From an uncultured Pseudohongiella sp. (GTDB taxonomy: Bacteria; Pseudomonadota; Gammaproteobacteria; Pseudomonadales; Pseudohongiellaceae), in assembly GCA_951812715.1 (NCBI GenBank), contig OX638323.1:1776577-1840576 (forward strand): DNA of 64,000 nt, given 5' to 3'. Below the pieces are notes generated by a model. It searched no databases. It saw only the letters and a program-made list of their open reading frames with translations, and was not told the DNA's origin. Shown in pieces: positions 3,451 through 61,141 of this stretch. The translations under genes were made by a program, and so were the position numbers. The first letter of the stretch is position 1. Each line of letters begins with the position of its first letter.

Positions 3451-3588
3451 GTTTTCGCCGCCGGTTTGCCACCTTGAGGGGCAGTCATTATAGTGCATAC
3501 GCAAGTACGGTTCCGGTTACCCTCCCTCTTACGCAACTTGGGCCGGAACCGGTTCAATGCAACGGGGAAAGTCCTGATTCCGCCATCC

Positions 3589-8861: not shown

Positions 8862-9235
8862 CAAGCTGAAGCAGGGCGGGTGCGAGTCCACTATTATTTG
8901 CCTGGCTGGTTAATATTAGCCCCTGCATTAGGTTACTGATGGAGCAAATTCTTGCCGGCGCATCCGCGATGGATCTGGCGTTCGCCAACCGGACTATGAA
9001 AAACATTCGCGAGAACCCGCGCGCAGCCGAGCGCGACCTTGGCCGCGCTTCCGCAAACAAGTTTGGATTACGACTCGCTGACTTGACGGCGGCGACTCGA
9101 TCGATATTTGACTCGTTTTCCGGTTCGAGAATCAGCATGGCGAAAACACGCCGGACAGGAAATCGGGGTCAGTTATAATTCCCGGAAAAGTCGGCTTGGC
9201 GGTGGCTGTCTTGCCCGGCGCGATAACGGAGTGAA

Positions 9236-45125: not shown

Positions 45126-45273
45126 TCAGAGTCAGGCGAGCTGCCGGTTGACCAGTTCCCGGAATATTCCACCGGCTTCCGCCAATTCCTCGAATGAACC
45201 GCATTACGCGACTTTTCCGGCCCGCATGACCTAGATTCGATCGGCCTGCCCCGGGGGCGGTCCGCGAACGAGC

Positions 45274-46737
45274 ATGGAACGGGGCCTCGATTTGTCTGAT
45301 AATCCGATATTAGCCAACCCGCCGGTCCAGGGGCGTCAATGGAGTAAAACAGGACAGAACGTGAGTTTGTCGGATCTCCTCAGCGAACGCTCCATTCATA
45401 TCCGGATGAGTTCGGCTTGTACGGCCCAGCGGTCGGACTGCGGAAGGTTTCTCGCTATCGTTTCCGATAAGTTTCCCGAACTCCGTCTCACGAAATGGAC
45501 CCAAGTTTTCGAATTGGCCAACTCGCGGCTCAATGAGGGAGCGCCGCTGGTGGAACTTCGCGATTGCGTGCTCACTTCCGGCGACGACCGACAGGCCGCG
45601 GCCTACCTTGCTCAGATCGAGAGATTGTGCAGGGTCGGGCTGGTCGAGTTCCCGCTAGTCGATGACGAAGAAGAAGTTGCGGTTATCGCGCCGCAGCAGG
45701 AATCCTATATTCCGTCCCTCGCGCCGCGGATGCCGGATACGGCATTCGTGTTGCATCGCTTTGCTTGCCTGCGCCGAGATGGTGAGGCTTGGCTTGCCGA
45801 ATCACCGCTCAGTGGCGCGCGCTTCCGGTTCGTCGATCTCGACGCACTGGACCGACCGCTCGTTCGCCGGGCTCTCGCCGCCGCGGGATTTCTCCAAGCC
45901 GGTCGCCCGGAAGAAGATGTGCAGGGGCATACGCTGGCGCACTGGGAGTTTCATGATCTCATCTATCACACCCACAGCCGCAGAGGTTGGCACCATGATC
46001 CGAGCGGACCACAATGTCCGCTGATCGGCCTTGTCGAACCGGAGCCGGTCCGGCGCCCTGAGTGGCCCGGCGCCATCGTTTCACTTCCGCGCGCAGCCGA
46101 CGCGGGCGGAGAGGCTTGCTCCGCGATCCTGGAACGGCGTCGTTCCGAGCGTGACTTCGACGACAACAACCCGATCTCGATCATCGAACTTGGCGGTCTG
46201 CTCGACCGCGCGGCGCGCTCGCGCTCGTCCCTGGCAGGTTCCGTGCAGGATTCTTCCGGCAAGACCGCGCCGTTCGAAGGGGCCCAACGACCGTATCCAA
46301 GCAGCGGCGCCATCCATGAACTTGAGATATATCCCGTTGTCCACCTGTGCGATGGCCTCGACTCCGGCTTGTATCATTACGATTCATGGCGTCATGCCCT
46401 CGTGCGCATCCCGGCTGACGACGCGGATGTCGCCCGGCTGCTGCGGTACGCGAAAATCGCGATCAGCGCACCGGGAAACCCGCAAATCGTGCTTGCCATT
46501 GCCGCTCGATTTCCACGGGTGTTCTGGAAGTACAAGTCAATCGGATACGGCAATATTCTTCGCAACACCGGTGCGCTTTACCAGTCGCTTTACCTGGCGG
46601 CGACGGAAATCGGACTTGCCGCCTGCGCGGTCGGATCGGCCGATGCCATGCTGTTCGCCCGCATCACGGGCCTCGATCCGTTTATCGAGGGCTCGGTGGG
46701 AGACTTCGTCATCGGCAGCAGGCGCGGGATCGGTTGA
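45274..46737 (+). CDS. SagB/ThcOx-type FMN dehydrogenase (azoline oxidase) with a long N-terminal extension
   Basis: RFACLRRDGEAWLAESPLSGARFRF (SagB N-domain pattern), RRSERDF, QRPYPSSGAIHELEIYPVV, GYGNILRNTGALYQSLYLAATEIGLAACAVG. The true start is uncertain. Confidence 0.8.
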   Translation: MERGLDLSDNPILANPPVQGRQWSKTGQNVSLSDLLSERSIHIRMSSACTAQRSDCGRFLAIVSDKFPELRLTKWTQVFELANSRLNEGAPLVELRDCVLTSGDDRQAAAYLAQIERLCRVGLVEFPLVDDEEEVAVIAPQQESYIPSLAPRMPDTAFVLHRFACLRRDGEAWLAESPLSGARFRFVDLDALDRPLVRRALAAAGFLQAGRPEEDVQGHTLAHWEFHDLIYHTHSRRGWHHDPSGPQCPLIGLVEPEPVRRPEWPGAIVSLPRAADAGGEACSAILERRRSERDFDDNNPISIIELGGLLDRAARSRSSLAGSVQDSSGKTAPFEGAQRPYPSSGAIHELEIYPVVHLCDGLDSGLYHYDSWRHALVRIPADDADVARLLRYAKIAISAPGNPQIVLAIAARFPRVFWKYKSIGYGNILRNTGALYQSLYLAATEIGLAACAVGSADAMLFARITGLDPFIEGSVGDFVIGSRRGIG

Positions 46738-46757: not shown

Positions 46758-49682
46758 TCAAGTGAGTTGGCGTTTTACCAGATCTTGAAAAATGCCGCCG
46801 ATTTCCATGAGTTGTTCGAAGGATCCGCTTTCCACGACTTTCCCGGCCTGCATCACATAGATACGGTCGGCCTGTTCGAGAGTGGAAAGGCGGTGCGCGA
46901 TGACGATGCGGGTCGAGGTGAGCGCGGCGAGGTTTTGCATGACCTGTGCCTGGCTTTCGTTGTCGAGCCAGTTGGTGGCTTCGTCAAGCAGCATGATGTT
47001 CGGGCTGCGAGTCAGCGAGCGGGCGATGGTGACGCGCTGGCTTTCGCCGCCGGACAATACCGACCCGCTGGTGCCCACCGGCGTCAGCATGCCCATGGGC
47101 ATGGCTTTGATTTCCCGGTCGATTCCCGCGACTTCGGCGGTTTGCCAGACTTCCTCGGTGGTCGCCCCCTCGTGGTGGACGACGATATTGTCCCAAAGGT
47201 CTTGCGGGTGTAGTTGCACCGACTGTGGAACGGTTCCGATTTTTCGTCGCACCTGTTTGAGGTTCAGGTGGCGAAGGTCGCGGCCATCGTAATACACAGC
47301 CCCCGCGGTCGGCTGCTCAAGCCCGAGGGCGAGCTGAAACAGCGTACTCTTGCCGGCGCCGGATTCACCGGCAATGGCAATGAATTCCCCCGGACGAGCG
47401 TGAATGTTGACATCGTCCAGAATGAGCGGCCCATCTGGATCATAGCGGAATGAAATATGGTCGAACTGAACCTCGCCGCCGAGATGTTCAAAAGATTCGC
47501 CTTCCGTGGCTGACTCGGGAATTACGGCAAGCAGCGGCCGGATTTGCTCAAGACTGGGCGACATGGCGGCAATCGCGCCGAAGGACTCGCCTAACCGGGC
47601 CGCCGCGGTCTGGAAGGTAATGTATACCGTGTAGACCACGAGAAAATCCCCCACCGGCAGCGCGCGGTCGCCGGTGGCGGATACCGCGAGTAGCAATACG
47701 GCGCCGGTGAGAAGGGGAAGCGCCGCGCCGAAGGCCTGCAAGTGACCTTCGAGCGCGCCGAGTTCGAGTTCTGCCCGCTTCTGGTCGCGAAAATCCCGCG
47801 CCCAGATCGCGAAGGCCGAACCTTCGGCGCTTTCCACGCGCAATTTTGCGATGCCGTTGATGATCTGGAACAGTCTGCCGATTACCTTGCGCGCCGCGGC
47901 GAGCATGCGCTGGTAGGGCGCGGTTTGCCGCAATCCAATCAGTAGTATCAGCAATAACGAAGCGAGACTGAAGGCGAGAGCGATGAGTCCAAGCGTGTGG
48001 TCATAGATGAAAATAAGGCCAAACACAGGCAGCAGGAAAATTACCGACAATATGCTGTCCACGACAACTCCCTGCACTCCGTCGCGCAGGTTTTGAAAGG
48101 TTATTCCCCGCATAGCGAGATCCCCCGCCGGATAGCGGCGCAACACCCCCGCCGGCAGGCGCAGCAGGCGATCCCAGAACGCGGCTTCGATGCGTGCAGC
48201 CGAACGTCCTTCCAGCCGCATCATCGCCGTGCCTTGCAGCAGATGCAGCAAAGCGCCGAGCAGGCCGAAGCCCGCCAGCGCCGCCGCCACCGCGTAAACC
48301 GCGCCAGGGGTTCCGCCTTGCATGACATGGTTCGCCGCGAAACCCAGCGCCAGCGCCGGCAATAGCTTGATCAGCCCCGCCGGCAATCCGCTCAGCACCA
48401 GCCGCAACAAGTCACCGCCCGAGCCATGGAGGCCGATGCGCAGCAGGTCGCGGATATCCGCGCTTCCCGGCGGCAAGGGCCGGTAGAACATCCAGGCTTC
48501 CTCTTTCAAAGCGGCGGCCCGCTCCGCGGTAACCGGGACGCTGCGCCTGCTTGACGGATCGATTTCCCGGTAGCGCCCCGCGGCGCCGGGAACCAGGGCG
48601 ACTGGCTGGCTGTCCTCGGCGCGGAATGCGAGCATCGCATTGCTGTCGCCCAGCCACCATTGATCTTCGGCTTTCAGTTTGATCCGCCGGGTGCGAACCC
48701 CGGAAGCGTCGAGTATGTCTGCCAAGCGCAGGGGAGTTTCCAACGCGGCTGACCGCCGCGGAATGCGAAACTCGATCCCTTCCTTGCGGCCTACGATACG
48801 CATGGCTTCCGCCAGCGCCGCGTCGGCGTCTTCGGCCTCTTCTTCCGTCGGCAAGTCATAGATATTGAAAAGCCGGCGCCTGGCCGCCGCTTCGTCCCGG
48901 CGGCGGCTGCTCGCCCGGGCTCGTTCGAGATTGGCTGAATCGACTACGGCCAGCCGCCGGTTGAGACGCTCAAGCGCGTATGCAACTTGGTGAAACATGG
49001 CCAGGGCCGGTAGCAGCAGACCTTGTTCGGAAAGCTGCCCGGATGATTTCGCCGTGACTTCCGTCGTCCGGAACAAGGTGAGCCAGTTTGCCTGGGTCAA
49101 GGGAATCAGACCTTCCCCGCCGCCATTCTCTCCGGTTAATTCAGCGCCATCGATCAGATCCATGAACAGACTGGCGCCGCGCGGCGGCTGGGATACCCAA
49201 ACCACGCCGCTCCGCACGGCAAGTGTGCCTGGATTGTAGTTTCGCGCGGCGCCGGGAGTCGCCAAACCGTCGGAGCGCGGATGGTGGGTTACAAAGCGGG
49301 ACAATGCGCCGACGAGGTCGGTCAGCCAGTTGTCCACCTGTGTCGCGAGTTCGGCGGCGTCGGCCCCGGCGAGCGCGGACACCGGCAGCCGTTTAAGCAC
49401 GGTGCCAGGCAAACCCTTGGCGATGAGGCTCAAGGTGGTGTCTTGCTCGTCCGGCGCGACGCCCGGCAGGAGTCTGCCGGGCGTCGCGCGCAGCAAATGT
49501 TGCGGCGCAGCCTGTTCCACGCCGCCCTCGAACTCCACCAGAAACAGATCGACGGCGCCCTTGTCGATAAGCCAGATACAATCCGGATCGTCGAGCGTTA
49601 TCGGCAGATTGCCGGCGCAAGGAACGGCAACGCCGTCGCGTGCGGCGAGTTCGGAAATCGATATGTATTGCGCGTCAGACAT
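46758..49682 (-). CDS. NHLP/NHLM-bacteriocin-system ABC transporter permease/ATPase (second subunit; N-terminal cNMP-binding-like domain)
   Basis: 974 aa. N-terminal beta-roll-like region CIWLIDKGAVDLFLVEF. Six-TM ABC domain. Walker A GESGAGKSTLFQL, signature LSGGESQRVTIARSL. 4-nt gap to the C39 ABC gene. Confidence 0.8.
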   Translation of the reverse strand: MSDAQYISISELAARDGVAVPCAGNLPITLDDPDCIWLIDKGAVDLFLVEFEGGVEQAAPQHLLRATPGRLLPGVAPDEQDTTLSLIAKGLPGTVLKRLPVSALAGADAAELATQVDNWLTDLVGALSRFVTHHPRSDGLATPGAARNYNPGTLAVRSGVVWVSQPPRGASLFMDLIDGAELTGENGGGEGLIPLTQANWLTLFRTTEVTAKSSGQLSEQGLLLPALAMFHQVAYALERLNRRLAVVDSANLERARASSRRRDEAAARRRLFNIYDLPTEEEAEDADAALAEAMRIVGRKEGIEFRIPRRSAALETPLRLADILDASGVRTRRIKLKAEDQWWLGDSNAMLAFRAEDSQPVALVPGAAGRYREIDPSSRRSVPVTAERAAALKEEAWMFYRPLPPGSADIRDLLRIGLHGSGGDLLRLVLSGLPAGLIKLLPALALGFAANHVMQGGTPGAVYAVAAALAGFGLLGALLHLLQGTAMMRLEGRSAARIEAAFWDRLLRLPAGVLRRYPAGDLAMRGITFQNLRDGVQGVVVDSILSVIFLLPVFGLIFIYDHTLGLIALAFSLASLLLILLIGLRQTAPYQRMLAAARKVIGRLFQIINGIAKLRVESAEGSAFAIWARDFRDQKRAELELGALEGHLQAFGAALPLLTGAVLLLAVSATGDRALPVGDFLVVYTVYITFQTAAARLGESFGAIAAMSPSLEQIRPLLAVIPESATEGESFEHLGGEVQFDHISFRYDPDGPLILDDVNIHARPGEFIAIAGESGAGKSTLFQLALGLEQPTAGAVYYDGRDLRHLNLKQVRRKIGTVPQSVQLHPQDLWDNIVVHHEGATTEEVWQTAEVAGIDREIKAMPMGMLTPVGTSGSVLSGGESQRVTIARSLTRSPNIMLLDEATNWLDNESQAQVMQNLAALTSTRIVIAHRLSTLEQADRIYVMQAGKVVESGSFEQLMEIGGIFQDLVKRQLT

Positions 49683-49686
49683 CGTT

Positions 49687-51909
49687 TCAAGCTGTTTTGA
49701 CCAATTTGTGGTAGACGCCGTTTTCGTCCTTCATTAACTCGTCGTGAGTGCCGCGCTGCACTTTGGCGCCCTTGACGAGAACGATAATCTCGTCACAGTC
49801 TCGCACCGTGCTCAAGCGGTGGGCGACGATCAGGCAGGTGACCCCGCGGCGCCGCAAGGCGTTATCGACCAATTCCTCGGTCGCGGCGTCAAGGGCGCTG
49901 GTCGCCTCGTCAAGGACAAGTACCGTGGGATTGCCGACCAGCGCGCGGGCGATTTCCAATCTTTGCCGCTGGCCGCCGCTGAAATTCACGCCGCCTTCCT
50001 CGACCGGCGCCGCGTAGCCGAGTGGACGGTGCAAAATGTCTTCGTGAACGCTGGCATCCCGGGTTGCGGCGCTAATGGCCTCATCGGGAATCGCCGGATT
50101 CCAGAGGGTGATGTTGTCGCGCACGGTCCCGGAAAAAAGCACTACGTCTTGATCGACCACGGAAATGGAACGTTGCAAGACTTCTTCCGGAATCTCGTGC
50201 CGCGGTTTTCCGTCGAACAGGATTTCCCCTGACCAGGGCTGAATGAGTCCCGCGACGAGGCGCGAGACCGTCGACTTGCCGGAGCCGCTGGAACCCACGA
50301 TGGCAACCCGCTGCCCCGGCTTGATCACCAGATTAAAATCCTCGATCAGCGGTGGTTTGCTCTTGTTGTAACCGAAAGTTACGTTGCGAAGCTCGACCTG
50401 ACCGGTAAGCTGCAGCCGCCCCTTGAAAGTGGGCAGGGAATCCGCCTGTGGATTGCGGCGCGTGAATACCGGATCTTCGGCGGTCCTGGTTATGTCTTCC
50501 AGGCGGTGCAAATCTGATTCGATGGCCTGGCGCTTGTCGGCGAACTCGACGAAGCGCCCCACCGGCGCCAGGAACATCATCGCCAGAATGTAAAATCCCG
50601 CCAACGCGCCCAGGGTAATATCGCCTTCGAGTACCCGGCCCACACCGAACGCCAGGATAATCGCGCCGGCCAGCATCGACATCAGACCCGGCAGTGAGGT
50701 GTTGACGTATCCCAGTTCGGCATAGCCCTTGCGGGCATCGAGTTCGAGCGCCTGTTGACCCGACCAGCGCGCGAAGTAACGATCATCGGCCGCCACCATG
50801 CGCAAGTTGTCAGCGTAGTTCAGCATCTGCATGCCGATGCCGAGCAGCAATCCCTGTTCCCGCCGCATCGCATCCGCGCGGACGGAGCGTAGTTTCTTGA
50901 TGAAATGCGCCAGCACGGCATTGACCGCGGCCAGCGCCAGCACGATCAGCCCAAGCCAGATATCGTATAACAGCATGGCGGCCAGAAACACCAGGCTTGC
51001 CGCCATATCGATTATCAGCACAATAAACTGTTCGGTAAGGTTTTTCGCGATTCTGTCGATGGCCGAAACGCGGTCGGTCAGGTCGCCGACCAGCCGATGA
51101 TTGAAAAACTCCACCGGCAGGCGCAGCAACCGGGAAAAACCGCGGCTGTATCCGGCAATCGAAATCCTCGTCGATAGTCGCTTCAACAAACGATGTTTCA
51201 GCAAGGAAAGCAGATAGGCCAGCAAGCCGGCGCTACCCAGCAGAACCGCCGTCATGAGGCCCCAAGGTTGCTGGTTGATCAGCACATGGTCCACGAAGAC
51301 GCTCACCGAGGCGGGCGCCGCCAGCGCTAGCAAGGCCAGCATCAAACCGCAGACGAACGCTCCGGCGAGCCCATCCCAGGTCCCACCCAGCCAGACTCGC
51401 GCCTGCTTCAGCAAGCCGGGGCGTTCGCCGCCGGCCTTGAAGTTCTCGCCACGCTTCAGCCGCAGCGTGATTCTGCTGTAGCCCTTGTTGAATTCTTCCG
51501 TGGTAACCCGGCGTCTGCCAGTGGCGGGGTCGTTCAGATAGAGGTGATTTTCGTCATAGCCTTCCAGAACTACGAAGTGACTGTATTGCCAAAACAGGAT
51601 CGAGGGCAGCGACAATCGCTTGAGCATTTCGGTATTCACGCTCAGACCGCTGCACTCCAGCCCATAATGCCGCGCGGCGCGCAGGATGCCGGCCGCGCTT
51701 GAGCCGTCTCGGCTTACCTCGCATCTTTCGCGCAATTCCGTTAGCGGAATCCAGCGCCCAAAATGGGCCAGAACGCTTCCCAGGCAGGCGGCGCCGCATT
51801 CCGAGGCGTGCATCTGCAGCAGAATCGGCGTCTTTACCCTTTGCCTGTGCGGCTTGGAAGCGGCTCCTTTCGATTGGCTTGCTCGCGAGCTCGAACCGAC
51901 TGCAGACAT
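49687..51909 (-). CDS. NHLP-family bacteriocin export ABC transporter with N-terminal C39 peptidase domain
   Basis: C39 catalytic region QMHASECGAACLGSVL, SHFVVLEGY, LNDPA. Walker A GSSGSGKSTVSRL, signature FSGGQRQRLEIARAL. Its start abuts the stop of the adaptor gene. Confidence 0.9.
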   Translation of the reverse strand: MSAVGSSSRASQSKGAASKPHRQRVKTPILLQMHASECGAACLGSVLAHFGRWIPLTELRERCEVSRDGSSAAGILRAARHYGLECSGLSVNTEMLKRLSLPSILFWQYSHFVVLEGYDENHLYLNDPATGRRRVTTEEFNKGYSRITLRLKRGENFKAGGERPGLLKQARVWLGGTWDGLAGAFVCGLMLALLALAAPASVSVFVDHVLINQQPWGLMTAVLLGSAGLLAYLLSLLKHRLLKRLSTRISIAGYSRGFSRLLRLPVEFFNHRLVGDLTDRVSAIDRIAKNLTEQFIVLIIDMAASLVFLAAMLLYDIWLGLIVLALAAVNAVLAHFIKKLRSVRADAMRREQGLLLGIGMQMLNYADNLRMVAADDRYFARWSGQQALELDARKGYAELGYVNTSLPGLMSMLAGAIILAFGVGRVLEGDITLGALAGFYILAMMFLAPVGRFVEFADKRQAIESDLHRLEDITRTAEDPVFTRRNPQADSLPTFKGRLQLTGQVELRNVTFGYNKSKPPLIEDFNLVIKPGQRVAIVGSSGSGKSTVSRLVAGLIQPWSGEILFDGKPRHEIPEEVLQRSISVVDQDVVLFSGTVRDNITLWNPAIPDEAISAATRDASVHEDILHRPLGYAAPVEEGGVNFSGGQRQRLEIARALVGNPTVLVLDEATSALDAATEELVDNALRRRGVTCLIVAHRLSTVRDCDEIIVLVKGAKVQRGTHDELMKDENGVYHKLVKTA

Positions 51910-52461
51910 TCAAGTTCTTCCAGGTCCCAGGAGTGAAACAGGTGAATATTCACCCAGGGTGACGACGATTCTGCATTCCGATCCATCCACCGCGGATTCG
52001 CTGATGTCTTCGCCAAGCGAGATTCCCAGCCGGTGCATAGCCGCGGGCGCCGCGGCGGTTTGCCATTGCATCCCGCCGGAGTCGGTAACGGCGGCGATTG
52101 AGGCTATCTCGCCGACAACCCGCAATCCTTCTCCGTTAACGCCGGAAAGCTCTAACGCAGTTGTCATTCCGGGCTCGAGCATTTGCGCGATGTCCCGCTC
52201 GAGCCAGATCATGGACTGCACCGTCCGGCCCGTGGCGGCCGGATCTCCGGCAGCGGCAACCAGCACGCCGTCGAGAGCGACGCTGCGTGTTACGCTCCCC
52301 AGGAACAGCCATCCGGCAAGCGCGAGCAAGGTTAATCCGCATGCCGCGACGAGCAGGCGTTCACGGGGCGTGGTGACTGTAAGCAGCCGGTCGAGTTGCT
52401 CCCGCTCCTCCTTGGCCTCCGCGACGATTTCGTGGAATGGTTCAAAAGGATCTGCAAACAC
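51910..52461 (-). CDS. HlyD-family (NHLM-type) secretion adaptor lacking the coiled-coil hairpin (183 aa)
   Basis: EQLDRLLTVTTPRERLLVAACGLTLLALAGWLFLGSVTRSVALDGVLV fits the N-terminal consensus of NHLM-system HlyD proteins as I recall it. The C-terminal part LEPGMTTALELSG...VVGEIASIA...CRIVVTLGEYSPVSLL fits the barrel end. The middle alpha-hairpin is absent. Confidence 0.65.
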   Translation of the reverse strand: MFADPFEPFHEIVAEAKEEREQLDRLLTVTTPRERLLVAACGLTLLALAGWLFLGSVTRSVALDGVLVAAAGDPAATGRTVQSMIWLERDIAQMLEPGMTTALELSGVNGEGLRVVGEIASIAAVTDSGGMQWQTAAAPAAMHRLGISLGEDISESAVDGSECRIVVTLGEYSPVSLLGPGRT

Positions 52462-52516: not shown

Positions 52517-52546
52517 TCGACATTCTACGACACGAAGACTTAATAT
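52517..52546 (+). promoter_or_regulatory. candidate sigma70 promoter for the precursor gene in the AT-rich divergent intergenic region
   Basis: TCGACA (52517-52522), 18-nt spacer, TAATAT (52541-52546). Strong SD aaggag at 52592-52597, 7 nt before ATG 52605. Confidence 0.3.
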
Positions 52547-52604
52547 AGTTAACAGAATCAATGTGTGATTCTAGGGCATTGTTGAACGGAAAAGGAGAAA
52601 GCTA

Positions 52605-52859
52605 ATGAGAAACGGCAACGAGGCATTGGATCAAATTGTCGAAAAATCCACACTGGATGCGGATTTCAGACAAAATCTGCTGGCAGATCCAAAAGCCACT
52701 ATTTGTAAGGAATTGGGAGTTACGCTTCCCGATTCGATGACTGTCAAGATTCATGAGAGCGACATGCAGACGGTGCATCTTGCATTGCCGCCAGCCATGG
52801 ATCTCACTGACGAACAGCTCGAAGCTGTCGCGGCTGGCCTTTGCTGCTGCGGTTGGTAG
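52605..52859 (+). CDS. NHLP (nitrile-hydratase-leader-peptide) family RiPP precursor; predicted core LCCCGW
   Basis: LDADFRQNLLADPKATICKELGVTLPDSMTVKIHESDMQTVHLALPPAMDLTDEQLEAVAAG matches the NHLP leader consensus, including the VLPP block and the eeLeavaGG-type cleavage motif. Six residues follow. Strong SD and a downstream terminator. Confidence 0.85.
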   Translation: MRNGNEALDQIVEKSTLDADFRQNLLADPKATICKELGVTLPDSMTVKIHESDMQTVHLALPPAMDLTDEQLEAVAAGLCCCGW

Positions 52860-52880: not shown

Positions 52881-52920
52881 AAATGCGGGCGCGAAACAAG
52901 CCGCGCCCGCATTTTCTCTT
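52881..52920. terminator. rho-independent terminator between the convergent precursor gene and the 369-aa ORF
   Basis: aatgcgggcgcg-aaacaagc-cgcgcccgcatt, a 12-bp GC-rich stem, followed by ttttctctt. Confidence 0.7.
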
Positions 52921-52984: not shown

Positions 52985-54094
52985 TCAAGGCGCGACCGCT
53001 CCGGAAAGCACCATGAACACATAGGCCTTTGCCTGTCGGAGCCGATTTTTGGATATGGTCAGTTTTATGTGGTGAATGCCGCGCAGCATCACGTAGCGCC
53101 CGGATTTCGCAAACAGCGGAGTCGGTTTTGATATCCAGTCGGCAAGTGCGGCGACCTTTTCCGGAATTACAATATCCTCATGGCGCAAGGCTTGCAGGAA
53201 CGGATTCCAATCGGTCAGGCCATCGAGCCAATATTCCGAATCTTTGCTATGTCTCTCCCTCACAATCAGCGTAAGGCCGAGCGTTGACCCGAGACCCTTT
53301 TCCAGCACATCGATATTCGCCCCGATCTCGATAACATTCACGCGTTTCCCGAAGCGTACAATCGTGGAATCGACGGCTGAAACCTGACCCGGCCAACCAG
53401 TGTTTTCGAGCCAGGCGCATATTGCTTGCCGCGATTTGAATCCCATGACCGCCAGACGGATTGCCCGCGAGCGAGACGGGAATACACCGAAAGACTCCAT
53501 GCGCGTATCCTCCGGCTGCGCCAGGTAAACCCGTTCGACGTTCTCCCGTTCGGCGTCATTCGTCTCCCAGCCTACGCAGGAAACGAGCGCGTCGATCACC
53601 GTGCCGGCATCGTTCGCCCGGCCTCCGGCGCCGATAATCGGACGTTCGCGGGGTATCAGGAACATACCCGGAAGCGGAGATTCGCCACCCCGGGCAGTGC
53701 CAATGTCATATTCCAGCATCAACTTGCGACCGACAATTTTGCGCAGAGATGAGTTTTCGGCATCGATTTGCCGGCACAGCCGCGTGATCGCGTTCGCGGT
53801 CTCGTCCGTCCGCGCCCGTTTCCGGAAATACGCTGCCGACCTGCTTCCGCTCGCCAGCGAGATGCCGAAATCCGCCTCCGGCCTGCTCGTATGCAGCGGC
53901 AATTCGAAGCCGAACGGAAGGGCGGCCATTGTGATAGGAAGGTTCCGAGCGCATTCGAGTATGCCTTCCCATTCCGGGTCTCCGATCAGAACCGGCGAAA
54001 TCCGGTTGCGAAAGTGCCCCAGCAAGTCGCCCATGGCGCCGCCCTCTTCGGCGAGCCGGTCCTCGGTTAGCGCGACTGCTTCGTCGCTTTGCAT
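52985..54094 (-). CDS. hypothetical protein in the RiPP operon (candidate tailoring enzyme; family not recognised)
   Basis: 369-aa ORF co-oriented with the cyclodehydratase and the leader-fused gene. Repeated paired-strand-like segments: LMLEYDIG, AIRLAVMGF, VIEIGANIDV...LGLTLIV, IHHIKLTIS...AKAYVFMV. Confidence 0.55.
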   Translation of the reverse strand: MQSDEAVALTEDRLAEEGGAMGDLLGHFRNRISPVLIGDPEWEGILECARNLPITMAALPFGFELPLHTSRPEADFGISLASGSRSAAYFRKRARTDETANAITRLCRQIDAENSSLRKIVGRKLMLEYDIGTARGGESPLPGMFLIPRERPIIGAGGRANDAGTVIDALVSCVGWETNDAERENVERVYLAQPEDTRMESFGVFPSRSRAIRLAVMGFKSRQAICAWLENTGWPGQVSAVDSTIVRFGKRVNVIEIGANIDVLEKGLGSTLGLTLIVRERHSKDSEYWLDGLTDWNPFLQALRHEDIVIPEKVAALADWISKPTPLFAKSGRYVMLRGIHHIKLTISKNRLRQAKAYVFMVLSGAVAP

Positions 54095-54176: not shown

Positions 54177-55481
54177 TCATCGACCTGCCAGGATTTCGAC
54201 GAGACGCTCCAAAGCTTCGATGCAAAACGCCGAGGTCACGGCTTCGGAGCCATGCCCTATCCGCCCCGCCACACCCCATTTCATATGCTGGTCGCCAAAC
54301 GCGAGCAGCTCCGGCCAACTGCCGTCCTGACGTTGCGAGCCCATTAATACTTGCGCCAGGCGTTTCGCGTCGACGCTCTCAAGAGCTCCAATATTATAGA
54401 GCGCCGACACTGCTTGGGCAGTCCCGAGGATGTTGCCAAATTCTCCCTTGTCATCGCTTAAGCCCAGAATGCGATCCGCCAGTATCGGGCGCAGCCGTTC
54501 GAGCGCGGGCCGCGCGCGACTCATGGCGCGGGCGGCCGCATAGTAGATCGCGACCGTATCGGGATACCATTTTGACGAACCTTCAAGCTTGCCTTCCGCG
54601 ATCAAGGCCTCCAGCCATCGTTGAGCATCCCTGGTTTCGGGATAATCGCCCAGGTAAGCAATGACGTTCGCATTAACGACGGGGTCGGCTTCTATACGAA
54701 AGGGCGGCGCGACGTCGGGTTCGTCCTCCGCGTGCAACCAGGTCATGAATCGGCCCTCTTCGTCGCGGTTCTCAAGCATTTGCGAAACGTTCCTTCTCAG
54801 CGAAATCCAGGGGTGAGTCCCGATGACCAGCGAACAGAGCGCGGCGCTGTCTAGATCCAGGGGCAGATGGCGGTAATAGCGCCACAACCCGGGATATTCG
54901 ATGGTGTCGACAAGATACGCCTTGGTTGCGGCGCACATGGCCCTGGCCCGCGCTTCATCGCAACTTTCGAGAGCAAGGACGCAAAAAGCCGAAATAAAGG
55001 GGGGTTTTTCGTAATGCCGCGGAATGTCCGGGTCAGCCGTATTGAACCGCACACAGCGCCAGGCCCCGTTCTCGTCAATGGTCGATTCCAGGAACTCCAG
55101 ACCGCGGCGGATACTTTCCCTGCCCGCTTTTGCAAGTGCTTCGGGTGTAGCTACGCTTGCTCGGGCTATCGTCCTGTCGACTGAGTGGGGACGAAGAGGC
55201 GGCGCGGGGTCGTACATCGTTTTGCGAAGAAAATCTAGCGATGTGGTACCGGCTTTTGCCGCCTCCCGTTCCGCGGCGCTGAATTTGCCGCGCGGCGGGA
55301 GCACCAGATGTGTCGCGTTGCAGGTTTCCTCATGCACATGAATTTCGTGATCTTCGGCCAGCATCACGCCGAGTTCCTTCTCGATCGCTTCCCTGGGATT
55401 CGCGATAAGGCGTTGACGAAATTCGCTGTCTTCGCCGGCTTTCGATAAGAGAGACTCTACTGAATCGATGCGCTTCTTCAT
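54177..55481 (-). CDS. NHLP leader-like domain fused to a prenyltransferase/squalene-cyclase-repeat (alpha/alpha toroid) domain
   Basis: N-terminal ~78 aa (EDSEFRQRLIANPREAIEKELGVMLAEDHEIHVHEETCNATHLVLPP...EREAAKAG) aligns without gaps with the precursor leader. The C-terminal ~365 aa carries QW-type repeats IDENGAWR, NRDEEGRFMTW, SDDKGEFG, QRQDGSWP. ATG at 55481 chosen (ggaaaag 4 nt upstream); the track ORF starts at a TTG at 55517. Confidence 0.75.
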   Translation of the reverse strand: MKKRIDSVESLLSKAGEDSEFRQRLIANPREAIEKELGVMLAEDHEIHVHEETCNATHLVLPPRGKFSAAEREAAKAGTTSLDFLRKTMYDPAPPLRPHSVDRTIARASVATPEALAKAGRESIRRGLEFLESTIDENGAWRCVRFNTADPDIPRHYEKPPFISAFCVLALESCDEARARAMCAATKAYLVDTIEYPGLWRYYRHLPLDLDSAALCSLVIGTHPWISLRRNVSQMLENRDEEGRFMTWLHAEDEPDVAPPFRIEADPVVNANVIAYLGDYPETRDAQRWLEALIAEGKLEGSSKWYPDTVAIYYAAARAMSRARPALERLRPILADRILGLSDDKGEFGNILGTAQAVSALYNIGALESVDAKRLAQVLMGSQRQDGSWPELLAFGDQHMKWGVAGRIGHGSEAVTSAFCIEALERLVEILAGR

Positions 55482-55575: not shown

Positions 55576-57969
55576 TCAAGCGATTACCGGCATGGGATTG
55601 AGTTCGGCCTCCGCCAGCGGACTCTTTCGCAGGCCCATGTCAACCGGAACCTGGTACAGTCGACCCGGCGCGAGTCTTTCCCAGAAATGGCGCATGCCGG
55701 GCACGATCACCCGCACCACGGGCATGCCGATATCGGGCCGTGTCTGATCGAGCACTAGCAGTTCCATGCCTTTGGCTTCGACCAGCCCCCGGCAATATTC
55801 GACGTCATCGCGGGCGTCCGTCGATTCGATGAGCGGATAATCCCGCGCCTGGCGCATTGGCGCTTCGGCCGGCGCCAACCAGGAGCAATCGGACAGTCGC
55901 GCTGTTTTCCACCACCATAGCGCAAGCGGGTCGTCGATCATGGGCTTGGCATTGTGGCTGCCGGGGCGATTGCCGGGCCGCGGCAGCCAGGTCAGGCACT
56001 GGTTCAATTCGCAGATCGCCCGCTGGGCGGCGATCTTCGGGTCGGCGTGGGCGCCGGCGCCGTAAATTATGTCTTCGGTTTCCGCGTCCGGCCTGCGCGA
56101 GAGCGCGACGAAAGTTGGAATGCAGATATCCGAGGTGACATCGAGCAGCCAAACTTCTCTTTCGCATTGGGCGTAATACTCGGCGGCCGAAGCGAGGTAC
56201 CGGTCGTTGAAACTGGCAAGATCGACCATCGGCGCCCGCAGCCGGTTGTACCACCAGATAGCGAAGGCATCGCGTTCGGCCAACTCATAAAAGCCTTGCA
56301 GGATCGCCTCTTCACGGGTGTTGCCGGCGGCGCAGCCGTTGGAATCGGCGAACAGGTCGAATTTTCCGCGTTGTTCGGGCGCCATGCTGTAAAGCATCGA
56401 TGTCGGCAGATAGCGATGCCGCTGGCTGGAAAGCGACCAGACCGGCGTCCAGTCGATTTCGGCATCGGGATCGAGGCGCGGTGGTATGACATTATATGGG
56501 TGTCCCTTGGCATTGATGCTCGCGGCGTTGTCGAGTTGGGTTTCGCTGAACAACTGAACTTCGTTGGGATGGATTGCCGCCGCCTCATCGGCGAAATCGC
56601 TGAAGCTCTTGCAGGTACGAATTTCCTCGCCATGCAAGGCGCCCGAGTATCGCTCCACCGCCTCGCAAAGCGCGCTGACTTCGGATTGTTCTCTGGTGCT
56701 GCCCTTGCCGGCGCTCTTGCTGCGCAAGCTGCGCCGCAGCGAACTCAGTTTGCGGCTACGCATTCCCAGATTGCTGCCGGCCCAATAAACATGCAGCCAG
56801 GAATCGGTTTCGTCGGTGGTGCGCGTCAGCCAGGTAACGACGCCACTGACCGGGCTGACGAGGTGACGGTATTTCGCCAGCGTAACTTCCGGCGCCACGG
56901 TGCGCGCGCCGCCGCTGTTGCTGACGGCCTTGGGGCTTGCTTGCAGGCGCGGCGGTACCGGCGGCCGATCCGGGCGATAAAGCGCTTCGTCGCCACAGGC
57001 CCGACATTGCGGCCGTCGCATTACCCGATGCCGCGAACTCTCGAAACGGCCGGTATTGAGCGTCAGCGCGTGCTCGTGAATCGGGGCCTCCTCGCCGAGC
57101 ACGACCCATTTGACGATTTCCGCGGCGATCAATCCATAGAGCGCGTCGATCACCGCCGGTTCCCGGGCGAAGGGCTTGAAGGCTGCCTCCTCGCCGCCCA
57201 GGTTACGCAGAAAATTGTGCACTTCCTGGTGGGCGCGCAGGCGGTAACTCAGACAGGCCCAGCAGGGGCCTTTCCCGTCCGCGTGAAAGACGGGACCGAA
57301 CAGCGGCTGAATGCCCCAGGGCCGAACAAGCATCCAGGGCGCCCCGGTTTCGAGCTGGCGCCCGTTCACTTCCGCGAAGCGCTCCTTCAGATAATCCGCG
57401 CAGACAATGACGCTGAGCTTCGGATCCTGATTTCCCACAACCGCGCCGCTTGACTCAAGCCTTGGGATCAGGCGGTCGTCGTCGCCGGATACCGCGATTC
57501 GCGATTCCGCCAATTGCTGCTCGACCCAGCGCGGCGACGCGCCAAGCGACGACCAATAGGCCGCCCGATCCGCATCCATGCCATGATCGGCGGAAAGCAC
57601 ATAGCCCTTGGTGGAGAGCGAGGCCAGCGCCGTGAGCACATCCGCGGCGGCATGGCTGGCTTCAAGCGCGGCAATGATTTCGCCTTGCGCGCGCCGGCCG
57701 TCGAGCAGCGGCAGCAGGTCGCAATACAAGCCGCCATGCAACAGGGTATTGAAAGTCTCGGAAACGAGCAGTGTCTGCTGTTCGCCGATGACGTGAAAGC
57801 GCAAGTGGGGAGCGAGCGCGGGGAGTTCGACCAAGCCCTGATCGGCTGGGGTGATTCTCCTCAGTATTCCACCAGAGGATCTCGATTCCGTTTGGGTCCG
57901 CACCTGAATATTCCGCGCCGGCTTAACTAGGTATTCTCTGAAAAATTCCAGTCCAGTCGCGGAGCGCAA
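55576..57969 (-). CDS. fused TOMM cyclodehydratase (E1-like leader-docking domain + YcaO domain)
   Basis: 797 aa, the size and architecture of PatD/TruD-type fused enzymes. N-terminal LRFHVIGEQQTLLVSETFNTLLHGGLYCDLLPLLDGRR resembles the docking-domain consensus. The C-terminal half is YcaO-like and ends NPMPVIA (Pro-rich C-terminus). TTG start is uncertain. Confidence 0.8.
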   Translation of the reverse strand: MRSATGLEFFREYLVKPARNIQVRTQTESRSSGGILRRITPADQGLVELPALAPHLRFHVIGEQQTLLVSETFNTLLHGGLYCDLLPLLDGRRAQGEIIAALEASHAAADVLTALASLSTKGYVLSADHGMDADRAAYWSSLGASPRWVEQQLAESRIAVSGDDDRLIPRLESSGAVVGNQDPKLSVIVCADYLKERFAEVNGRQLETGAPWMLVRPWGIQPLFGPVFHADGKGPCWACLSYRLRAHQEVHNFLRNLGGEEAAFKPFAREPAVIDALYGLIAAEIVKWVVLGEEAPIHEHALTLNTGRFESSRHRVMRRPQCRACGDEALYRPDRPPVPPRLQASPKAVSNSGGARTVAPEVTLAKYRHLVSPVSGVVTWLTRTTDETDSWLHVYWAGSNLGMRSRKLSSLRRSLRSKSAGKGSTREQSEVSALCEAVERYSGALHGEEIRTCKSFSDFADEAAAIHPNEVQLFSETQLDNAASINAKGHPYNVIPPRLDPDAEIDWTPVWSLSSQRHRYLPTSMLYSMAPEQRGKFDLFADSNGCAAGNTREEAILQGFYELAERDAFAIWWYNRLRAPMVDLASFNDRYLASAAEYYAQCEREVWLLDVTSDICIPTFVALSRRPDAETEDIIYGAGAHADPKIAAQRAICELNQCLTWLPRPGNRPGSHNAKPMIDDPLALWWWKTARLSDCSWLAPAEAPMRQARDYPLIESTDARDDVEYCRGLVEAKGMELLVLDQTRPDIGMPVVRVIVPGMRHFWERLAPGRLYQVPVDMGLRKSPLAEAELNPMPVIA

Positions 57970-58159: not shown

Positions 58160-60559
58160 TCAGGCGCGTACGCCAAGAGCTTCGATTTCGGCGGCGGCGC
58201 GGAATGCGGTTGCGGCAACCGCCACATTCAGCGCATCGAAATTCTCATGACCGCATGCGCTCGCGACAAGCGCCTTGATTTTCGCAGCCGAGGAATTGAC
58301 GTCGAAGCCCTCATCGCCGATCAAACACACAATGCCCTGCAAATCCCGGCACATGGCGGCAGCTTGCGCGAGCGATTCGGCGCCCGCGCTTTCGAACACG
58401 CTTGCCGCGCTCGGCTCTGAATCTTCGATCTTGCCTCCAGCGCCGGTTATTTGAAGATAACGCGCGGTTCGCTCAATATCGTCGAGTCCGCCGCGCATGG
58501 CTGCAAACGAAGTCACGCCCGGTTCCGGAGCGTCTTCGGGCAGTTGGCGCAATTCGGCCATCAGCGCGTCGTTTCTACTCCAGCCGTCGAGGATTTCGCG
58601 CCGAACCTCGGCAAAACGGCTGCCCAAATTCGAGTCACCGGATTCGAACGCGCAACGCGCCCTGCTCAGGTCGGGAACTTCTTTCGGCGCCGCGCTACGA
58701 TAAAGTTCGGCGAGGTCGCAAAGCGGAAGCGCCAGACAGGACTTCGAATCGCTCGGCATCGGCGAGAAAAGCAGGCTTTCCTGGGTCAGATCGGAAAGGA
58801 TTTCGCGAAAGCGCTTGCACAGGTGTTCGTTTTCGCCCGCCCGCCAACCGTCATGGACAAACAGGATATCCACCGTGGCGCCGGGATGGACCTCGCGGCT
58901 GGCCAGATCTCCGAGGAAGATCGCCGCTATGCCGCCTTCGCGCAACGGACCGCGCCGGTCGACGAAGTCCGCCACCACGGCGGAAAGCACGGTCGTGATC
59001 GAAGCTTCGGCGAGATTCGACAAGGCGGCTTTCGCTTCGGCCGGAGACAGGTTTCCGCGCACGGTGTGCATGCCGATCTGAAACGCCCGGTCGTTTGACC
59101 AGTTGCGCACGATTTCGGCGGTTTCCCTGGCATCGGCCACGGGAATCTCGGCGATCTGGCTCTTCATTTCCTGAACGTCCATTTCGCGAGTCCAATACAG
59201 CCGAGTCAATCCGCGCCGCGCGATCGATTCGGATTCAGGGTCGGGTCCGAATCCCTTCGGCAGGTCGAGATCGGTGAATTCGCGTTCGGTCAGGTTGTCG
59301 AGCAATTCCGGATTGCGTTCGATCCATTTGGCGAGCCGCGGAGCGGCGCCGAAAATCTCGACGATCGCGTCGAAAGCTTCTGGACGCGACGCCGAAACCG
59401 GGCTGTCGTAGGCGCTCCAGTCGTCGATCTCGGGATAGAAATACTTGCGCCATTGGTCGACAATGGGGTCCATTTTTGCAAACCATCGCTTCGGCCGCAG
59501 CACGAGATTCATCATGTCGCCATAGGTTCCCGGCAAATGCGGCGATTCCTCGGGGTTACAATTCTGCAGCAGCGGAAATTGCCGGCTCGCGACCGCGTGA
59601 TGGTCCGCGTGGCGCTGCATGTTGAAGAACAGCCAGTTACTGAACTTCCAGTCGGCGCTCCAGGAATGACGCGGCATCACCTTTTCCCAGCGACCGTTCG
59701 CCAGCCGCACCCGGCGCAGTCCGTAATGTTGCAGGTAGTTGCTGATCTTCATCGAAAACACGCAACTGAACCCGAGCGCCGCGAAAACAAGCACGGCCCA
59801 AATGCCTCCCATTAGGAAAACCAGGCCGTACCAGAACGCCATATAGGCGCCATAGCGCCAGAACGGATTGCTCAAGTGCCAGATCGGCAGGCGCCGCCGC
59901 GCCAGACGCTCTCCGGCGACTTTCCAGGAGCCGGTGAGATTGCTGATGATCTCCTTGGGGAAATAACTCCAGAAACTCTCCCCCCTGGGCGCCGATCCTA
60001 CGTCGTGAGGCGTGCCGACCTGGGCATGGTGGATATAGATGTGTTCGGTGGAATATTGCGGGTAGGAGGCGGATGCGAGCAGCAATTCCCCCAGCCGCCG
60101 TTCCCAAGAGGTCCGCCGGTGAATCATTTCGTGGCCGACGATGAAGACCGCCTGTGCTTCTACAGTCAGGATAATTGCCAGTAATACGTCTTCCCAGACC
60201 GCGAAAGGATTGGCGACCAGGATCTGCCACATGCCGAAGATGAGCGTCGGGGGCCAGAGTAACGCCCAGGCCCACGCGGGCAGATTGTGCCAGAGCAGGC
60301 GGCGTTCCGGTGTCCTGGCCGGGTCCATGTTGCGGCCGTCGAGTCCCATCACCCGGTCGATCATGCCGTTGCCACTCATGAAAAAGAGAAACGGCGGCAA
60401 CAGCCACCAGCCGCCGTAAATCGAGGCGGCAACAATCAGCGGGAAAATTCCCAATGGCAGGTAATGCGGAAGCGCATTAAAAATCGACGGCTCGATCAGT
60501 TTGGGAATGTCAGCGTTTTGCGGGCCTGGGCCGCCCGGTGTGATCGTATCTTGTGGCAT
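58160..60559 (-). CDS. fusion protein: AlkB-type membrane di-iron hydroxylase + GlnE-like nucleotidyltransferase module
   Basis: N-terminal half has the His boxes HEMIHRR, EHIYIHH, NYLQHYGL, QRHADHH of the alkane-1-monooxygenase family. The C-terminal ~400 aa resembles one adenylyltransferase repeat of GlnE (FLGDLASREVHPGATVDILFVHDG). Confidence 0.7.
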   Translation of the reverse strand: MPQDTITPGGPGPQNADIPKLIEPSIFNALPHYLPLGIFPLIVAASIYGGWWLLPPFLFFMSGNGMIDRVMGLDGRNMDPARTPERRLLWHNLPAWAWALLWPPTLIFGMWQILVANPFAVWEDVLLAIILTVEAQAVFIVGHEMIHRRTSWERRLGELLLASASYPQYSTEHIYIHHAQVGTPHDVGSAPRGESFWSYFPKEIISNLTGSWKVAGERLARRRLPIWHLSNPFWRYGAYMAFWYGLVFLMGGIWAVLVFAALGFSCVFSMKISNYLQHYGLRRVRLANGRWEKVMPRHSWSADWKFSNWLFFNMQRHADHHAVASRQFPLLQNCNPEESPHLPGTYGDMMNLVLRPKRWFAKMDPIVDQWRKYFYPEIDDWSAYDSPVSASRPEAFDAIVEIFGAAPRLAKWIERNPELLDNLTEREFTDLDLPKGFGPDPESESIARRGLTRLYWTREMDVQEMKSQIAEIPVADARETAEIVRNWSNDRAFQIGMHTVRGNLSPAEAKAALSNLAEASITTVLSAVVADFVDRRGPLREGGIAAIFLGDLASREVHPGATVDILFVHDGWRAGENEHLCKRFREILSDLTQESLLFSPMPSDSKSCLALPLCDLAELYRSAAPKEVPDLSRARCAFESGDSNLGSRFAEVRREILDGWSRNDALMAELRQLPEDAPEPGVTSFAAMRGGLDDIERTARYLQITGAGGKIEDSEPSAASVFESAGAESLAQAAAMCRDLQGIVCLIGDEGFDVNSSAAKIKALVASACGHENFDALNVAVAATAFRAAAEIEALGVRA

Positions 60560-60679: not shown

Positions 60680-61141
60680 CTAACCAGGACTTGCTCGGAG
60701 CGGGTCGAGCCGCAGAAAACGGCGCGGCGGAAACCCGGTCATGAATTTGAATACCAGGCCCGCACTATAGATTTCAGCGACGCGATCGAGTTCATCACCG
60801 CCGAGCGGCACGGCAATATAGGGTTGCGGTTCGCCGCCGATTGCGGTCGCGACTTCGACTTGCGGTCGTTCGATGGCATGGCCGTACCATTGCCGCGGCC
60901 AATGATTCGCCGCCACGTAGATGCTGCCGTCGATGTCTCGCCGCGAGATTACGCGCTCATGGGGGCTGCCGCTATCGTCGGTCGTGATGATGACAATACT
61001 GTCGCCGCCGCTTGGTTGGAAATAGCCGAGCATCGACTCGAACGCGACAACTAACAGTACATATGCCGCCGCCATGACGATGGCGATGCGGATCCAGCGT
61101 GACGTATCGATTGCCATCTTGTTCCTCCCGAAGGTCATCAT
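60680..61141 (-). CDS. membrane-anchored hypothetical protein (possibly DUF385/deazaflavin-nitroreductase-like fold)
   Basis: TM IRIAIVMAAAYVLLVVAF, then a segment IYVAANHWPRQWYGHAIERPQVEV weakly reminiscent of DUF385. Confidence 0.35.
   Translation of the reverse strand: MMTFGRNKMAIDTSRWIRIAIVMAAAYVLLVVAFESMLGYFQPSGGDSIVIITTDDSGSPHERVISRRDIDGSIYVAANHWPRQWYGHAIERPQVEVATAIGGEPQPYIAVPLGGDELDRVAEIYSAGLVFKFMTGFPPRRFLRLDPLRASPG

Follow-up and report, generated by a model that had tools for sequence, protein, structure and literature searches.

An srp-type proteusin cluster with an LCCCGW core, a candidate azoline oxidase and putative tryptophan-tailoring enzymes in an uncultured Pseudohongiella

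The srp family and the precursor of the window

Proteusins of sponge symbionts whose core holds three contiguous cysteines are said to have been described by Nguyen et al. in JACS in 2021 (doi 10.1021/jacs.1c03474). We have analysed a stretch of 64,000 nucleotides from an uncultured Pseudohongiella sp. (contig OX638323.1), hereafter called the window, in which an open reading frame (ORF) of 84 codons (52605-52859, + strand), translated as MRNGNEALDQIVEKSTLDADFRQNLLADPKATICKELGVTLPDSMTVKIHESDMQTVHLALPPAMDLTDEQLEAVAAGLCCCGW and ending in AAG, LCCCGW and a stop codon, encodes a predicted precursor of a peptide made by ribosomes and modified after translation (RiPP). By its sequence, this SrpE-type precursor belongs to the published srp ("sponge-derived RiPP proteusin") family of marine sponge symbionts, a family spread over many bacterial lineages. 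The published SrpE leader (supplement of PMC10858898) and the window precursor share 67% identity and 89% similarity (E 3e-43), and the L(X)4L motif, which is LTEEQL in SrpE, reads LTDEQL in the window. By this identity to SrpE, the window holds a new member of the srp family and not a new kind of system.

The chemistry of the family is known from work on SrpE, the core of which is LCCCW. The YcaO protein SrpC cyclodehydrates the three cysteines to thiazolines (PMC10286304, PMC10858898), and the flavin-dependent SrpI brominates the indole C6 of the C-terminal tryptophan in strict dependence on the leader, through the L(X)4L motif (PMC10286304, PMC10858898, PMC12537861). SrpI tolerates a residue inserted before the tryptophan, as in LCCCAW (PMC10286304), and LahT150, a peptidase of the C39 type, can cut the modified core out (PMC10286304, PMC10858898). 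No other genes of the srp clusters are transcribed nearly as much in sponges as the 252-bp precursor genes, and a halogenase is co-located for 66 of 191 srp-like precursors (bioRxiv 10.1101/2023.06.09.544420). An NHLP leader, cleavage after AG by a C39-peptidase ATP-binding cassette (ABC) exporter, heterocyclisation of three contiguous cysteines by YcaO and a tiny product, all anticipated for the window by the original prediction, correspond in essence to what experiments have shown in this family.

The proposal that we make for the window, and which we hold to be quite probable as a whole, combines an SrpE-type precursor, the heterocyclisation of its three cysteines, an oxidation by a SagB protein, the prenylation and cyclisation at its tryptophan, and its cleavage and export by a C39 exporter. 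The window and the SrpE/srp clusters have in common the leader type, the L(X)4L motif and the order AG, then L-C-C-C...W-stop, as well as the genes for YcaO, the C39 exporter, a second ABC protein, a short HlyD-like protein, two proteins of 369 and 434 aa, and a desaturase-GlnE fusion. The window differs by an extra glycine in the core, by the lack of the SrpI brominase and of the MMPL transporter, and by the addition of a SagB oxidase. We compared it with 32 related loci, found in metagenome-assembled genomes (MAGs) labelled Gammaproteobacteria/Pseudomonadales, Alphaproteobacteria/Paracoccaceae, Thermodesulfobacteriota and Acidobacteriota. Every locus of sufficient length contains the genes for the precursor, the 369-aa and 434-aa proteins, YcaO and the second ABC protein (ABC2), and nearly all contain the desaturase-GlnE gene. 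Between the window and canonical loci, the accessory genes reach 56-83% identity. The YcaO, 369-aa, 434-aa, desaturase-GlnE and HlyD-like proteins, the C39 exporter (ABC1) and ABC2 are 42-67% identical to their counterparts in the canonical halogenase-bearing locus (L002).

Direct reading of the sequence gives a Shine-Dalgarno element, AAGGAG (52592-52597, + strand), separated from the ATG by 7 nt. A promoter-like site, TCGACA-18-TAATAT (52517-52546, + strand), lies 5' of the precursor in the divergent, AT-rich intergenic region; it is a consensus match only, in a scan that returned 3 sites where shuffled sequences would give 0.7. Downstream, RNA folding reveals a perfect G+C-rich hairpin of 13 bp (52881-52914, + strand), which the U-rich tract UUUUCUCUU follows. 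Its free energy is -33.5 kcal/mol (z = -4.7 relative to shuffled sequences), and it is probably a terminator, placed where the genes of the precursor and of the 369-aa protein converge. A simple consensus scan for terminators does not flag this hairpin, because part of its T-run pairs within the stem.

The leader (residues 1-78; 52605-52838, + strand), which ends in ...LTDEQLEAVAAG, is assigned by its identity to SrpE and by the NHLP (proteusin) leader model TIGR03793, which the precursor matches with 72.5 bits for a curated cut-off of 50.9; the precursor also matches Pfam NHase_alpha (PF02979) with 30.3 bits (cut-off 27.2). The recognition motif LTDEQL lies at 52803-52820 (+ strand) inside the leader. 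The core LCCCGW and its stop codon, read from the translation and from the family alignment, occupy 52839-52859 (+ strand). The strong Shine-Dalgarno element, the NHLP leader and the dedicated terminator claimed for this 84-aa ORF by the original prediction are all borne out by the sequence reading, the leader model and the folding, and so are the neighbours it named, YcaO, SagB, the C39 exporter and a second ABC protein, all of which flank the precursor. Taken at sequence level, the ORF is a real RiPP precursor gene, far beyond what chance would produce.

Double-glycine-type peptidases recognise a pattern made of hydrophobic residues at -4, -7 and -12 and a GG/AG-type pair at -2/-1. The residues before the core (LTDEQLEAVAAG, then L) are hydrophobic at -4, -7 and -12 and carry AG at -2/-1, so that the leader/core junction, as read from the sequence, fits this type of cleavage motif and cleavage is predicted there. 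The presumed leader protease is ABC1, a C39-peptidase/permease/ATPase exporter (49687-51909, - strand; Peptidase_C39 115.9 bits), which scores 837.6 bits against TIGR03796, slightly below the equivalog cut-off of 853.3. This exporter next to the precursor, and the fit of the junction to the double-glycine-type pattern, are what speaks against an end product consisting of the full-length, folded 84-aa protein, anchored by a prenyl group on a modified (lipidated) C-terminus. Such a product would accord with the unusual conservation of the leader (83% as the median of the pairwise identities, over several phyla), with the structured nature of NHLP leaders (PMC10858898, PMC12537861), with the very high transcription of the precursor gene (bioRxiv 10.1101/2023.06.09.544420) and with the tryptophan being the very last residue, an arrangement reminiscent of prenylated proteins. 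However, the conservation of the leader is equally explained by its recognition by four to six enzymes, and we consider the full-length product improbable.

Conservation of the core was followed in a protein search that covered 5.8 billion clusters, of which 432 match the precursor at E<=1e-3. The best 120 of these 432 relatives are 68-87% identical to the window precursor and 83-84 aa long, nearly all of them 83 aa, and all 120 stop right after ...EA(I/V)(S/A)AG followed by L(C/S)CC(G)W, with LCCCW as the core in 114, LSCCW in 4 and LCCCGW in 2. In the alignment of 121 precursor sequences, the leucine, the second and third cysteines and the tryptophan of the core are invariant, as are E70, Q71, E73, A74, A77 and G78 of the leader; L72 is present in 120 of the 121, and position 67 is occupied by I, L, V or M. 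The last 15 columns are almost invariant, while the median pairwise identity over the whole precursor is 83%, with several phyla represented. The glycine of the window core corresponds to a 3-nt in-frame insertion before the tryptophan and marks a small subclade; LCCCGW, one residue longer than LCCCW, keeps the leucine, the three cysteines, the terminal tryptophan and the stop in register with the family. The tiny core foreseen by the original prediction is genuine: the comparison with homologues, in which longer cores would have pointed to a truncation, gives a family norm of five residues, which is even shorter.

The idea that the short core is an artefact, due to a premature stop or a spurious ORF, has the unusual shortness of the core in its favour and nothing else. 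The precursor passes the curated cut-off of TIGR03793, the near-identical strain L033 (99.1% nucleotide identity) keeps it intact, and a truncated or pseudogene core is ruled out by the identical stop in all 120 listed relatives; we regard the probability of an artefact as negligible.

The natural variants of the core bear on the fate of its cysteines. LSCCW occurs in loci L021 and L029 and LCCSW in two further loci (L030, L031); the variants come from MAGs of Paracoccaceae, Thermodesulfobacteriota and Pseudomonadales. In these cores serine takes the place of the first or of the third cysteine, and no non-cyclisable residue ever does; since serine is cyclisable as well, this pattern favours heterocyclisation over metal binding. 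The original prediction had raised the alternative that the cysteines stay free and that the peptide binds metal through thiolates. The 84-aa protein as a whole might also do so, as three adjacent cysteines and the descent of NHLP leaders from the metal-binding alpha subunit of nitrile hydratase could suggest. Against it stand the nature of the variants, in which cysteine gives way to serine, a poor ligand of soft metals, the YcaO cyclodehydratase gene found in every sufficiently long locus, and the experimental demonstration that exactly these cysteines are cyclodehydrated in the srp family (PMC10286304, PMC10858898). A metal-binding tri-cysteine product is accordingly very improbable.

The LCCCGW subclade and its azoline oxidase candidate

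The cyclodehydratase of the window, a homologue of SrpC, is a predicted fusion of a RiPP recognition element (RRE)/E1-like part and a YcaO domain (55576-57879, - strand; TIGR03604 286 bits, TIGR03882 139.5, Pfam YcaO 320.7), to which Pfam adds a winged-helix domain; it is 66% identical to the protein of the canonical srp locus and 81-83% to those of the LCCCGW loci. At the edge of the cluster, a gene encodes a predicted SagB/ThcOx-type azoline oxidase dependent on flavin mononucleotide (FMN) (45427-46737, + strand; the start is set by homology, and the ORF opens at 45274). Its product scores 147.5 bits against TIGR03605, for a cut-off of 78.4, and has the cyanobactin oxidase CyaGox as its top match in the PDB (structures 5lq4 and 8pz5, E 6e-49), with FWKY aligned to FWKY. 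The conserved Lys-Tyr motif of active azoline oxidases is kept, and the sequence makes this protein a good candidate for an azoline oxidase.

Among the surveyed loci, the SagB gene accompanies only the LCCCGW core: it is present in the window, in its sister strain L033, and in L005 and L013, where it occupies the same position and its product is about 76% identical. It is found in none of the 22 surveyed loci with five-residue cores (LCCCW, LSCCW or LCCSW). A scan of metagenome contigs for further LCCCGW loci returned a single contig of 1.4 kb, so that the association of SagB with LCCCGW is drawn from four loci belonging to two or three lineages.

The same window lacks a brominase. A tblastn search with two SrpI homologues gives no match at E<=1e-3 in the whole 64 kb, and the MMPL transporter of some srp loci was not found there. 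Brominase genes are present in 18 of the 32 related loci, and of the 27 loci, the window among them, in which the YcaO/cyclase side is kept, 12 have none within about 10 kb. The brominase served for the discovery of the srp family without being universal in it, and its absence does not disqualify the window. Loci L008 and L010 represent an LCCCGW lineage that does carry a brominase, which indicates that the extra glycine is compatible with SrpI, in agreement with the tolerance of this enzyme for LCCCAW (PMC10286304). In the window, the absence of SrpI suggests that the tryptophan of the product would not be brominated. From its sequence relationships, the SagB protein probably oxidises the thiazolines to thiazoles, yielding a contiguous tris-thiazole, and the likely product of the window cluster is a non-brominated tris-thiazole.

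A product that keeps its thiazolines is the alternative to be weighed here: SagB would be a passenger or act elsewhere, and the product would be a tris-thiazoline. Thiazolines are indeed the outcome of the published srp chemistry (PMC10286304, PMC10858898), none of the 22 surveyed loci with LCCCW, LSCCW or LCCSW cores possesses SagB, and the gene lies at the edge of the cluster, convergent to ABC2 and beside a decayed fragment of it, a position that suggests a late insertion. On the other hand, L005 and L013, which are independent sister loci, have the gene in the same place (about 76% identity), its product scores above the TIGR03605 cut-off and still has the Lys-Tyr segment found in active azoline oxidases, and the related MprC/MprD pair, a YcaO protein and an azoline oxidase, turns an LCCCW core into thiazol(in)es (PMC10286304). 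We judge the tris-thiazoline rather unlikely and retain the tris-thiazole as the probable product.

The Mpr system of Methylovulum offers a parallel to this pairing. Like the window, MprE/MprC/MprD combines an NHLP leader with a YcaO protein and an azoline oxidase and leads to azol(in)e products (PMC10286304, PMC12455567), and MprC/MprD process the LCCCW core when it is fused to the Mpr leader (PMC10286304). The MprE leader, however, belongs to a different family, the two leaders cannot stand in for each other in the YcaO step, the Mpr cores are longer and diverse, and no PT-barrel or cyclase genes have been described in that system (PMC10286304, PMC12455567).

The logic proposed for the window, with a YcaO protein acting on cysteines, an FMN-dependent oxidation to thiazoles and the prenylation of an aromatic residue by a PT-barrel protein, is akin to that of the cyanobactins. 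These peptides, which have a very short core, are made by a PatD/TruD-type heterocyclase, a ThcOx/CyaGox oxidase and F-type PT-barrel prenyltransferases; they rely on the subtilisin-like proteases PatA/PatG and on short leaders, and are usually macrocyclised. The window differs from them, as predicted from its genes, by its NHLP leader, by cleavage and export through a C39 ABC protein, by a linear product and by an added class II cyclase.

The surroundings of SagB may retain a trace of its history. Between the gene for a 2-oxoacid:ferredoxin oxidoreductase beta subunit and SagB lies a decayed duplicate of the last 39 or so codons of ABC2 (45126-45251, - strand), 70% identical and interrupted by two in-frame stops, which is present in L033 and not in L005 or L013. 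This remnant was probably left by the rearrangement that brought SagB to its position. Composition was also examined for evidence of a recent transfer and gave none: the G+C fraction stays near 0.6 from one end of the cluster to the other, with no sign of a foreign island.

Candidate enzymes for the C-terminal tryptophan

The original prediction had treated the C-terminal tryptophan as a bystander, a view that hardly holds: this residue is a principal target of modification, being brominated in the canonical clusters, and the conserved gene adjoining the precursor encodes a protein that resembles prenyltransferases. This "hypothetical" protein of 369 aa (52985-54094, - strand), a candidate tryptophan prenyltransferase, has a predicted PT-barrel (ABBA) fold according to its AlphaFold2 model and to Foldseek. 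The model (pLDDT 81.5, pTM 0.84) shows five alpha-alpha-beta-beta repeats, and the top 50 Foldseek matches in the PDB are all ABBA prenyltransferases, mostly of the indole/tryptophan type (E 2.5e-6 to 7e-5, TM 0.39-0.55), among them 5-DMATS, 6-DMATS, PriB, IptA, TleC, MpnD, AmbP3 and NphB. No srp locus of sufficient length lacks the protein, and its family comprises about 940 database clusters, annotated as hypothetical only. Neither the window protein nor 31 close and 20 distant or longer relatives have a match in Pfam or NCBIfam, and no informative fusion was seen among them. An exhaustive profile search, which gathered 667 representatives at 50% clustering, and Pfam gave no sequence bridge to Trp_DMAT, PTase_Orf2 or the cyanobactin F-type enzymes; since no link at sequence level is available, we call the protein PT-barrel-like and assign it to none of the known families. 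Many invariant Arg, Lys, Tyr and His residues of the family are located on or beside the predicted strands; R123, K124, R198, R208, R210, R213, R338, K344, K356 and Y358, all invariant, are candidates for a ring that would bind diphosphate.

The adjacent gene (54177-55481, - strand) encodes a protein of 434 aa, in which TIGR03793 and Foldseek respectively identify an N-terminal NHLP-like domain (residues ~8-80) and an alpha/alpha barrel resembling class II terpene cyclases. The first domain scores 51.2 bits against TIGR03793 (cut-off 50.9), is devoid of the L(X)4L motif and displays TG-TT (family consensus TG-AA) where the precursor has its AG-L cleavage site; co-assembly with the precursor or with the RRE of YcaO are possibilities for the role of a leader domain on this enzyme. 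Some databases mislabel the homologues as "nitrile hydratase subunit alpha".

The best Foldseek match of the barrel is the drimenol synthase AsDMS (9m7d/9mhs; E 4e-10, root mean square deviation 3.7 Å), followed by MstE, small squalene-hopene cyclases (SHC), SsDMS, SHC and oxidosqualene cyclase (OSC), and Pfam SQHop_cyclase_C is matched with 25.3 bits, just under its cut-off of 26.1. Profile alignment superimposes the invariant HLPxDLDS of the family on NFPDDLDTTS of drimenol synthase: D209, L210, D211 and S212 do not vary among 32 sequences of the family, and the partner of D211 is the Asp replaced by Asn in the inactive D333N crystal form (DLNTT). By this alignment, the catalytic Asp motif of this predicted class II cyclase is intact. 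Two other activities were considered for the 434-aa protein and rejected. Prenylation of cysteine of the CaaX/Rab type finds the prenyltransferase beta subunits at ranks 47-50 only (E ~1e-2, TM 0.32-0.33), and the formation of thioethers in the manner of LanC finds no LanC among the Foldseek matches, where class II cyclases reach E 4e-10.

The C-terminal domain of the 434-aa protein finds its closest structures among monodomain class II terpene cyclases, namely MstE (merosterolic acid) and the class II domains of the drimenol synthase AsDMS and of the drimenyl-diphosphate synthase SsDMS. The catalytic-acid motif is aligned, although the identity amounts to 15-21% and those enzymes are without an NHLP leader-like domain. 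The reaction proposed here for the 434-aa protein is of the MstE type: the polyprenyl chain on which MstE acts is borne by an aromatic ring before it is cyclised. To our knowledge, none of MstE, AsDMS and SsDMS acts on a peptide.

Guidance of tryptophan prenylation by a long structured leader has precedents. PalX/PalQ pairs an NHLP precursor with prenylation of the C-terminal tryptophan (PMC10853753), and MppE/MppC geranylates Trp-5 of a lanthipeptide with a Nif11 leader (PMC12715784). The fold of PalQ, however, is of the ComQ/isoprenoid-synthase type and not a PT-barrel, and neither Pal nor Mpp has YcaO chemistry or a terpene cyclase.

Distant relatives occur in other settings. In L035, at about 28% identity, the cyclase-domain gene is still immediately upstream of the PT-barrel gene. 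In L037 and L038, a distant PT-barrel homologue belongs to an NHLP cluster without YcaO and without cyclase that counts two to three PT-barrel paralogues. The L037 precursor (7195-7464, - strand) reads ...LSEAELTGVAGG, then SNDQWTDYSNW and stop; its core, preceded by GG, is free of cysteine, contains two tryptophans and one tyrosine and ends in tryptophan. A JmjC/cupin enzyme, PT-barrel paralogues and C39 ABC exporters complete the L037 cluster (with the regions 3185-4633 and 9001-10095), and likewise that of L038; the two clusters possibly represent a family of multiply prenylated and hydroxylated proteusins.

The pathway that we propose combines these elements. The 78-residue leader would dock the precursor onto the tailoring enzymes. 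The RRE-YcaO protein would cyclodehydrate the three cysteines of the core to thiazolines, a step shown for SrpE, and the SagB/ThcOx-type oxidase would then probably convert the thiazolines to thiazoles. The C-terminal tryptophan would probably be the target of the PT-barrel-like protein, instead of being brominated or, in the canonical clusters, in addition to it, and the prenyl chain thus attached may be cyclised by the NHLP-fused class II cyclase, in a manner similar to MstE; these two steps are proposed because of the predicted folds, the catalytic motif and the linkage of the genes. The C39-peptidase ABC exporter would finally cleave after ...EAVAAG and export the modified hexapeptide. Extended to the whole family, the structural models suggest, as a tentative view to which we give somewhat less than even chances, that srp-type products are peptide-terpenoid hybrids and not plain azoline peptides of five or six residues, and that in them the PT-barrel family, previously unrecognised, polyprenylates the C-terminal tryptophan and the class II cyclase cyclises the chain on the peptide.

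Several points weigh against this proposal. The presence of SagB is the one observation that argues for thiazoles over thiazolines. The prenyltransferase assignment is made at the level of the fold (TM 0.39-0.55, 9-14% identity), and no prenyl-diphosphate synthase is found in the cluster of the window. SrpC is sluggish in Escherichia coli and gives partly modified mixtures (PMC10286304). No description of the mature natural product of any srp cluster was found in the literature examined, and no publication linking srp to prenylation or terpene cyclisation, the annotation of Nguyen et al. 2021 lying outside this check.

Should the proposal be correct, terpene cyclisation would, as far as the literature examined shows, be described in a RiPP pathway for the first time. 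The cryptic product of a cluster that ranks among the most widespread and highly expressed of the sponge microbiome would also be defined. The assignment of a PT-barrel and of a cyclase, made at fold level, is a concrete proposal for the enzymes that act on the C-terminal tryptophan. Furthermore, the subclade that associates LCCCGW with SagB and lacks the brominase leads one to expect a natural form of the srp product that would be a tris-thiazole free of halogen, and the SagB protein of the window may supply the cognate oxidase partner for the poorly behaved YcaO of the SrpC type.

Transport, tailoring and flanking genes

The remaining genes of the cluster are also those of srp loci. ABC2 (46758-49682, - strand), an NHLP-type bacteriocin export ABC permease/ATPase, scores 685.6 bits against TIGR03797, under the equivalog cut-off of 709.4, and is 64% identical to its counterpart in the canonical srp locus; an N-terminal extension of about 290 residues lies outside the coverage of the model. 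The short HlyD-like protein of 183 aa (51910-52461, - strand) matches TIGR03794, the NHLP HlyD model of 421 positions, over its residues 21-71. Homologues of 173-183 aa are kept in 14 other surveyed srp-type loci, which argues for a distinct short adaptor and not for a truncation.

Beside YcaO, in the window as in nearly all srp loci, stands a gene for a membrane protein (58160-60559, - strand) in which an FA_desaturase/AlkB-like di-iron domain (FA_desaturase 96.5 bits) is fused to a GlnE-like domain (33.4 bits). The histidine boxes HEMIHR, EHIYIHH and QRHADHH can be read from its translation, the identity across loci is 56-79%, and the protein possibly performs an oxidative tailoring.

The cluster is flanked by a gene similar to that of the gluconate-2-dehydrogenase subunit 3 and by a GMC oxidoreductase gene (61222-63643, + strand). 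GMC oxidases, ThaO/TheO, have recently been reported to form RiPP thiazoles (PMC13083261). The GMC oxidoreductase of the window (61937-63643) was considered as a thiazole-forming enzyme of this type and set aside: it is paired with a gluconate-2-dehydrogenase subunit, and among the loci with gene calls listed, the pair is confined to three close relatives (L005, L006, L033) and missing from the canonical L002, so that it is probably unrelated.

Finally, a small protein of about 140 aa without annotated family is encoded 3' of the desaturase-GlnE gene (60680-61117, - strand); not detected in the other srp loci, it is 71-86% identical in the LCCCGW loci and in L026.

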